A stretch of 64,000 nt of DNA from the IMG/VR virus record IMGVR_UViG_3300046010_009647, positions 1-64,000 of that record; one strand, written 5' to 3'. Positions 5,800 to 7,046 of the stretch are shown here, in pieces. The first letter of the stretch is position 1. Each line of letters begins with the position of its first letter. The stretch comes from a virus. Below the pieces are notes generated by a model. That model ran no database searches. It saw nothing but the letters and a program-made list of their open reading frames with translations, and was not told the DNA's origin. A program made the translations under genes and the position numbers.

Positions 5800-6000
5800 T
5801 TACTTACCTTGTTTATAACGACGGGCGGCACGTCCGGCTTTTTTGGCACGTTCAGTGTTAGCTACAAATTGTTTACCTTCTCTACTACCAGCTCTTTTCT
5901 TTTGGTCAGTCTCCTCACGTTCTTCTTTAGACAGTGAAGCCCACGCTTTTTCTGGTAGGTAACGCTTAGTGTAACCCTTTTGAATTGCTTTGTCTGCCAT
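5800..6000 (-). CDS. small basic protein (C-terminal partner of the DUF5872-like protein)
   Basis: RYLPEKAWASLS..E...TD.KKR.GS..GKQFVANT; start overlaps the upstream stop (TAATG). Confidence 0.75.
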   Translation of the reverse strand: MADKAIQKGYTKRYLPEKAWASLSKEEREETDQKKRAGSREGKQFVANTERAKKAGRAARRYKQGK

Positions 6001-6311
6001 TATTTGCTTTCCTTGTACTTCTTAGCAGCAGACTTAGCCTTGCTACGTTTCTCATACTCATCTTTGGTTTGCCACTTTTCTTTGCCCCACTTCTCTAAAG
6101 ACTTTTGTTTATCACCTTTACCCCCTTTATATCCACCACCAGCTTCTTTGTACTCACTAGCAACAAGCTGAGCTTTTCTAGCCGAAATAATTAGTTAGCC
6201 TTACGGCTACGACCATTCTCCCGGTTTGCCACCACGGCCTTCACGCATAACTTTGTTTTTAATGCGCTCACGCAGGTCTGGTTTGGTGTACTTGCTTTTG
6301 TCTTCAGCCAT
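6000..6311 (-). CDS. DUF5872-like basic protein interrupted by a 27-nt coding gap (94 aa if bypassed)
   Basis: MAEDKSKYTKPDLRERIKNKVMREGRGGKPGEWS-[gap]-ARKAQLVASEYKEAGGGYKGG...KYKESK*; removing the gap restores the family motif GGKPG(Q/E)WSARKAQL; GAGG RBS upstream. Confidence 0.8.
6183..6212 (-). other. putative programmed translational bypass element (take-off TCG, stop hairpin, landing TCG)
   Basis: TCG TAG CCG TAA GGC TAA CTA ATT ATT TCG; hairpin TAGCC-GTAA-GGCTA. Confidence 0.75.
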
Positions 6312-6947: not shown

Positions 6948-7046
6948 TCACTGACCAGGCTTGCCACCTTTGGAGCCAGCCATCACGCGATCTTTGATTC
7001 GTTCACGTAACTCAGGTTTTGAGTACTTGCTATCATCCTGCGCCAT
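6948..7046 (-). pseudogene. truncated 5' copy of the DUF5872-like gene
   Basis: MAQDDSKYSKPELRERIKDRVMAGSKGGKPGQ* aligns with 6311-6216 and stops (TGA) exactly at the Trp (TGG) position. Confidence 0.8.

Follow-up and report, generated by a model that had tools for sequence, protein, structure and literature searches.

The window analysed here, a stretch of 64,000 nt (positions 1 to 64,000 of IMG/VR virus record IMGVR_UViG_3300046010_009647), carries on its - strand a gene of the DUF5872 type whose reading frame is interrupted by a short insert (Table 1). The junction reads GAA TGG TCG / TAG CCG TAA GGC TAA CTA ATT ATT / TCG GCT AGA. A Ser codon is followed directly by a TAG, and two further in-frame TAA codons precede a second TCG. 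The gap is 27 nt long by the convention used for phage T4, in which one Ser codon is included. The original prediction had described this sequence, its hairpin and stops, the second TCG and a 94-aa frame obtained by skipping 27 nt, all of which were confirmed on the - strand. The window has a single occurrence of the hairpin pattern TAGCCGNRAGGCTA, where 0.09 would be expected.

Read straight through, the gene has 103 codons. This translation, used as a query, retrieved 789 proteins, nearly all of 94 aa and about 75% identical, with PF19197 present. The homologues align as GGKPGQW-SARKAQ and are missing exactly the nine gap codons. Removal of the 27 nt restores GGKPGEWSARKAQ and the 94-aa length of the ~790 homologues (34 + 60 residues), and the motif regained in this way is the most conserved one of the family. 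The assignment to a DUF5872-like family, made in the original prediction, is borne out by the PF19197 match of the 94-aa homologues; the window's own gene pieces score 16 bits against Pfam DUF5872, under the cut-off of 27.5. An AlphaFold2 model of the uninterrupted protein (mean pLDDT 68) has predicted helices at residues 11-23, 35-47, 64-67 and 74-93, with the GGKPGQWS motif in the loop preceding helix 2.

The TAA of the gapped gene (6002-6000) overlaps the ATG of the next gene as TAATG, the coupling that the original prediction had proposed. This next gene (window 5800-6000, - strand) encodes 66 aa including KRYLPEKAW, and a motif of the same type lies within the same ORF of longer family members (...GERYLPKK or ...RRYLPAKAW in L066 and L070). 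Judging from the sequences, two coupled genes may share the DUF5872 domain between them in this phage group.

Table 1. Features of the interrupted gene and the adjoining insert (positions in the window)
Feature	Position	Strand	Sequence or basis
Native 5' stub of the DUF5872 gene, 32 codons ending GGKPGQ, closed by TGA	6948..7046	-	MAQDDSKYSKPELRERIKDRVMAGSKGGKPGQ
Endonuclease VII-type HNH homing endonuclease (putative), 202 aa	6304..6912	-	PF02945, 1.5e-22
ATG start of the gapped gene (copy B)	6311-6309	-	sequence reading
Copy B, replacement gene start, 34 codons, ends in the putative take-off TCG	6210..6311	-	MAEDKSKYTKPDLRERIKNKVMREGRGGKPGEWS
Putative take-off codon TCG (Ser34)	6212-6210	-	then TAG at 6209-6207
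Putative untranslated gap: TAG stop, hairpin and A/T-rich tail	6186..6209	-	alleles compared
5-bp hairpin TAGCC-GTAA-GGCTA, begins at the TAG	6209-6196	-	
A/T-rich tail of the gap	6195-6186	-	ACTAATTATT
Putative landing codon TCG (Ser34)	6183..6185	-	
Downstream 60 codons (ARKAQ...KESK) and TAA	6000..6182	-	opening ARKAQLVASEYK

The gap forms the 3' end of an insert of ~763 nt (window 6948-6186), located between codons 32/33 and 34 of the conserved 94-codon gene. This cassette opens with a stop, which is followed by an endonuclease VII-type HNH gene and by copy B, a 34-codon replacement for the gene start; the gap comes last. The codons of the native stub occupy 7046-6951, and the TGA that closes the stub is the first codon of the cassette, in place of TGG. 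The family consensus is nearer to the native stub than to copy B, and comparison with uninterrupted alleles gave the same result. Homology to naive loci stops on the left at 6949, at the TG of the Trp codon, and begins on the right at the landing TCG or at the following codon. The nuclease stop overlaps the ATG of copy B (ATGGCTGA), with GAGG 7 nt upstream of that ATG. All relatives of the nuclease (72-97% identity) precede a copy B and a gapped allele. No second copy of the DUF5872-type gene was found in the 79.5-kb virus genome record. The nearest cultured relative, Synechococcus phage S-EIV1 (79,178 bp), has an uninterrupted allele, and the cassette was not found in any cultured phage of the 'phages' collection. 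ARAGORN detected no tRNA or tmRNA gene in window 1-64000, so that there is no phage tRNA-Ser there.

Sequence comparison shows the cassette to be mobile between divergent phage lineages. At a single site, divergent genomes have either a naive or an invaded allele, and uninterrupted WSARK alleles are found alongside gap alleles, as had been anticipated. Synonymous divergence of the nuclease was correlated with that of copy B, which is present only in the cassette (r 0.47), as compared with an r of 0.12 between the nuclease and the downstream half. The dN/dS of the nuclease was 0.09 at a dS of about 1.6, a synonymous divergence that makes the cassette old. Native stubs were intact in ~20 of 24 cases and damaged in ~4, with several deletions in addition; since most are intact, many of the insertions may be recent. 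With only about 4 of 24 stubs damaged, stub decay was a weaker clock than hoped. Some hosts have a native N-terminus of 27 codons, yet the cassette keeps a copy B of near-constant length, which is 34 codons in 42/42 uncut IMG/VR alleles (a contig end truncates one further allele) and, of 64 full-length alleles from metagenomes, in 63.

Two sets of natural gap alleles were collected. In IMG/VR, where a looser search pattern brought in nuclease-free gap alleles, there were 43 unique gap alleles representing 21 gap variants, with gap lengths, counted in the T4 manner, of 27 (14 alleles), 24 (13), 28 (7), 29 (6), 23 (2) and 33 nt (1). The pattern used for the metagenomes fixed the TAG but allowed any take-off codon and any base at three of the four loop positions; it yielded 78 real cassettes, 69 of them unique, among which gaps of 25 and 26 nt appeared. 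Together the two sets comprise 31 gap variants; their lengths are 23-29 and 33 nt, and each of the three frame relations is represented. The 33-mer of the window occurs identically in 14 IMG/VR contigs from different samples, and an assembly artefact, which the original prediction had named as a possible source of the gap, is rejected on this ground.

The take-off codon was TCG in all alleles, including 69/69 of the metagenome set, where the search placed no constraint on it. The landing codon was TCG in 41/43 IMG/VR alleles (TCT in 2/43) and at 64 of the 67 resolved metagenome sites (TCT at 2, TCA at 1); AGY never occurred at this site among the IMG/VR and metagenome gap alleles. At the same site in 77 uninterrupted alleles, TCG accounts for only 5 codons (6%), the others being TCT (32), TCC (14), TCA (14), AGC (7) and AGT (5). 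Codon choice is free at the adjacent Gly, Pro, Ala and Arg residues, with four codons used for Gly27, four for Ala35 and five for Arg36. TAG directly follows the take-off codon in 43/43 unique IMG/VR alleles and was preset in the metagenome pattern. The 5-bp stem TAGCC/GGCTA is present in 42/43 IMG/VR alleles, and all loops are of the GNRA type (GTAA, GTGA, GGGA, GCAA and GAAA in IMG/VR, plus GAGA in the metagenomes). As the original prediction had anticipated, gap alleles retain matched flanking codons and, with one exception as to the stem, the hairpin; the TAG is retained as well. In that allele (L038:3683-3737, gap TAGCTATAATATTAAATAATT) the G+C stem is gone, the nuclease is intact and the TCG codons are matched; it is either a natural test of the need for the hairpin or a decaying copy.

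The gap's 3' portion is variable in sequence and restricted in composition. The tails contain 91 A, 82 T, 26 C and 5 G, with G occurring only within TGA. The dinucleotide TC is absent from the gaps of all 31 variants, in which CT is frequent, and none of 5000 tail shuffles gave a count as low (0/5000). There is no mini-Shine-Dalgarno (SD) sequence 5-7 nt before the landing codon, in agreement with the original prediction; the closest AGG is found where loop and stem meet, 9-19 nt upstream. With 5 bp the stem is short, and local folding z-scores were weak (-1.5 in the window). Besides the hairpin, RNAalifold retained nothing but a weak ACCA/UGGU helix and a helix of 3 bp that follows the landing codon. 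As the stem is without variation, it offers no covariation. A helix between the sequence before take-off and the landing site, seen in the predicted fold of the window, was rejected because it rests on non-conserved codons and is absent from the RNAalifold structure. Upstream of the gap, an SD-like GGRGAR formed by the Gly31 and Glu32 codons lies 5 nt before the take-off codon. E32 is invariant, and Gly31 is always GGR (42/42, as compared with 36% in naive alleles); E3 and E32 are the cassette-specific invariant residues of copy B. The original prediction had likened the basic upstream peptide to the nascent-peptide signal of T4 gene 60. The peptide is indeed basic, but this character is native to the family and not specific to the cassette.

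We consider it probable that the 27 nt constitute a programmed translational bypass of the gene 60 kind, which would sit at the 3' end of a homing-endonuclease cassette and shield the gene from the cassette's own nuclease. The nuclease would cut uninterrupted alleles at the conserved DNA encoding GGKPGQW/SARKAQ, and repair templated by the carrier would copy the cassette. That the uninterrupted target is cleaved and the gapped one spared we infer from the insertion in the most conserved DNA stretch of the gene, where the gap would part the two halves of the target site and so protect the repaired allele. During translation, a ribosome bearing a 34-residue peptidyl-tRNA-Ser on UCG would meet UAG in the A site, and the UAGCC-GNRA-GGCUA hairpin would form there. 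The tRNA would unpair, and the ribosome would slide across 20-30 nt of A/U-rich RNA devoid of UCN codons until the tRNA re-paired at the next UCG, with decoding restarting at GCN to give the normal 94-aa protein. Gaps free of TC are what a scanning peptidyl-tRNA-Ser barred from early landing would require. By the wobble rules, a tRNA-Ser with a modified U34 reads UCU, UCA and UCG; the UCU and UCA landings proposed for a few alleles would fit such a tRNA. It may be conjectured that take-off is aided by the GGRGAR that precedes the take-off codon and by the near-constant 34-codon nascent chain.

The downstream half could alternatively be made as a separate peptide, if translation terminated at the TAG and the downstream 60-61 codons were reinitiated near the landing site, the two peptides assembling unjoined. 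This is unlikely, although in several variants of 24 and 27 nt the landing codon is closely preceded by an ATT or ATA in frame. With ATT, ATA and CTG counted as start-like, 10 of the 21 IMG/VR variants have no such codon between the last in-frame stop and the landing codon, and in six of the 21 the landing codon is immediately preceded by TGA. Of the 43 downstream halves, 11, the window's included, are devoid of ATG, GTG and TTG in frame. The 49-aa clade has an in-frame ATG six codons past the landing codon, at codon 7 of the downstream half; SARKAQ, which is encoded upstream of this ATG, is nevertheless conserved with synonymous changes. A split might be tolerated by the protein, as the break falls at the predicted junction of loop and helix (between helix 11-23 and helix 35-47 of the model), and T4 topoisomerase works as a split protein (10.1101/2022.08.31.505936). 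Reinitiation, however, leaves unexplained both the fixed TCG/TCG pair and the absence of TC from 31 gaps. In the 23-nt gaps (L043 and L049), the landing frame is open for 12 codons upstream, with an ATG or GTG inside GARTGG, so that in these variants the downstream half could also be translated by way of a -1 frameshift or an internal start.

It is also conceivable that the gene is dead, with the gap acting merely as a DNA-level shield against the nuclease, loss of the protein tolerated and the intact halves reflecting recent invasions. Homing elements can spread despite a cost (10.1101/2022.08.31.505936), and such a history would agree with the largely intact stubs and the unrelated divergence of cassette and downstream half. 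The downstream halves derive from the host and are saturated at synonymous sites; because their divergence is unrelated to that of the cassette, part, and maybe much, of their conservation may predate each insertion. Against a dead gene, copy B, which is confined to the cassette, has a pN/pS of 0.07-0.13 at a pS of about 0.5 and has kept the invariant residues of the family. Nor did we find a broken coding half in any of more than 100 unique gap alleles, as against at least 10 unique alleles in which the nuclease has been deleted or truncated independently, with differing breakpoints. Each of these nuclease-loss alleles retains an undamaged copy B, gap and downstream half. Three of these alleles are without any trace of the nuclease; about half of their synonymous sites differ, and pN/pS is 0.06-0.11 in both halves. 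The downstream frame reaches its stop in 64/64 metagenome alleles that do not run off the contig, and the downstream half is likewise intact in every such IMG/VR gap allele. The decay of the downstream half that would mark a pseudogene, as the original prediction had pointed out, was thus not seen. On these sequence measures there is purifying selection on both coding halves, and a dead gene is very improbable. In L239, L168 and L205, gapped alleles without the nuclease, an unrelated ORF of ~100 aa (...NPAYYREVIRSHADPVPP...) stands where the nuclease gene would be, which suggests gene replacement at this position.

Events at the RNA level, whether excision of the gap (in the manner of a very small intron, or through cutting and rejoining at the hairpin) or a role of the hairpin as transcription terminator or attenuator, can scarcely be credited: the stable GNRA hairpin at the 5' end of the gap is flagged as minimally terminator-like in a simple scan, but most variants lack a T-rich tail, terminator-like sites are no commoner in the region than in shuffles (3 vs 1.6), RNA removal would need neither matched Ser codons nor the absence of TC, and we know of no bacterial or phage mechanism for excising 20-30 nt from mRNA. 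An intrinsic terminator in particular was rejected, since the window site was flagged only at threshold and its tail is not conserved. Stop readthrough and an alternative genetic code were rejected as well: the gaps contain TAG as well as TAA and TGA, and those of 23, 25, 26, 28 and 29 nt shift the frame, so that the intact downstream frame after non-triplet gaps excludes both.

The proposed bypass shares with T4 gene 60 its matched take-off and landing codons, a UAG immediately after take-off, a hairpin that starts from this UAG and has a stable tetraloop on a UAGCC/GGCUA stem, and an A/U-rich 3' part of the gap. The gene 60 gap, as the original prediction had given it, was confirmed on AF158101 (GGA TAGCC-TTCG-GGCTA TCTATAG...AGATTATT GGA). 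The likeness that had been drawn between the two gaps stands as regards the stem, which is the same, but this identity is largely forced: a hairpin beginning at UAG fixes UA./.UA and leaves two free G-C pairs, so that an identical stem is no evidence of common descent. The terminal ATTATT, another part of the likeness, is present in only a few variants and is not conserved. Common descent with the T4 hop is accordingly unsupported, only the CC/GG pairs being free and ATTATT rare. The gaps differ further in length (23-33 nt here, about 50 in gene 60), in the use of Ser UCG where the T4 and MobA cases have Gly or Asp codons, in the absence here of the mini-SD, and in a nascent chain of 34 residues as compared with 46.

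A closer parallel in organization is provided by the MobA element, which comprises a nuclease, an N-terminal extension with a homologous replacement segment, and a bypass cassette, and which ends at the landing codon (10.1101/2022.08.31.505936). Its nuclease has been lost repeatedly, some of its loops are GNRA and one clade has a 20-nt gap (10.1101/2022.08.31.505936). All cases come from myoviruses and concern their topoisomerase II large subunit; the cassette was called 'unique' (10.1101/2022.08.31.505936). Experiments on MobA and the T4 hop have shown that the gap protects the carrier (cited in 10.1101/2022.08.31.505936). The present cassette resembles the MobA/gene 60 element in having a nuclease, a replacement N-terminal coding segment and a gap at its 3' end, in the overlap of the nuclease ORF with the new gene start, in the repeated loss of the nuclease with retention of the gap, and in ending at or just past the landing codon; its GNRA loops recall those of some Topo2L cassettes. 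It was not, however, assigned to the MobA element, as the nuclease is unrelated, the host gene is different and the C-terminal extension is missing. The nuclease matches PF02945 at its C-terminus, whereas HY01 MobA matches PF01844 near its N-terminus, and the two are without similarity (BLASTP E 2.9). The host gene is DUF5872 and not the topoisomerase II large subunit, and the carriers are S-EIV1-like cyanophages of about 80 kb and not proteobacterial myoviruses. The upstream piece has no C-terminal extension because the cassette begins with a stop, and because the whole N-terminus is replaced the gene is restored and not split into two subunits, as it is in the MobA element.

Three other systems bear comparison. 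Free-standing phage endonucleases that home without an intron, such as those of the T4 seg and mob genes, have the nuclease gene next to or inside the target gene. Here as there, the carrier allele would be protected by a change of the site, and spread would proceed via double-strand-break repair in mixed infections. In intronless homing, however, protection is usually by silent substitutions; here it would be by an in-frame insertion, and a protective insertion inside a reading frame makes recoding necessary. In Magnusiomyces mitochondria, 'byp' elements of 27-55 nt are reportedly bypassed in translation, without RNA removal. They are like the present gaps in being short non-coding inserts of similar length in conserved genes, with matched flanking codons and mobile behaviour; unlike them, they are mitochondrial, G+C-rich and many per genome, with no linked endonuclease and no module of stop plus GNRA hairpin. 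Finally, UUA-associated candidate bypassing in Streptomyces phages (PMC10732093) is, like the present one, a candidate natural bypass in a non-topoisomerase phage gene; the trigger proposed there is a rare sense codon, and neither a stop-plus-hairpin module nor an endonuclease cassette is described in the abstract. No paper dealing with bypassing in DUF5872 or cyanophages turned up in full-text searches.

Efficient long-range bypassing rests on a single bench-tested phage case, T4 gene 60, and the sole published extension that we found, a 2022 preprint, concerns homologues only in the same topoisomerase gene (10.1101/2022.08.31.505936). What is new here is another gene, another nuclease family, another host group and a much shorter gap. 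We lean, with less assurance than for the bypass itself, towards regarding the stop-plus-hairpin gap as a portable device that lets unrelated homing endonucleases make their carrier uncuttable yet keep its protein, with an origin either separate from that of the T4 hop or in an exchange of the module. If so, a GNRA hairpin of 5 bp, a nascent chain of 34 residues and 20-30 nt of UCN-free RNA would be enough for bypassing on cyanobacterial ribosomes, and the 31 natural variants would be a ready-made mutational series for defining the minimal rules of bypassing. Confirmation would make bypassing a general answer to selfish nucleases that break their own target inside an essential motif. It would also provide a compact system of 34 codons and 24 nt, with dozens of natural variants in length, loop and tail, for finding out what the ribosome needs to take off, slide and land. 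At present, genome annotation splits such genes or calls them pseudogenes.

Four of 118 uninterrupted 94-aa homologues (P0056, P0090, P0104 and P0106) read GEWS like the cassette, and not GQWS, and three of the four also carry K30 and G35. These may be cleavage-resistant alleles or 'hit-and-run' products that have lost the gap.
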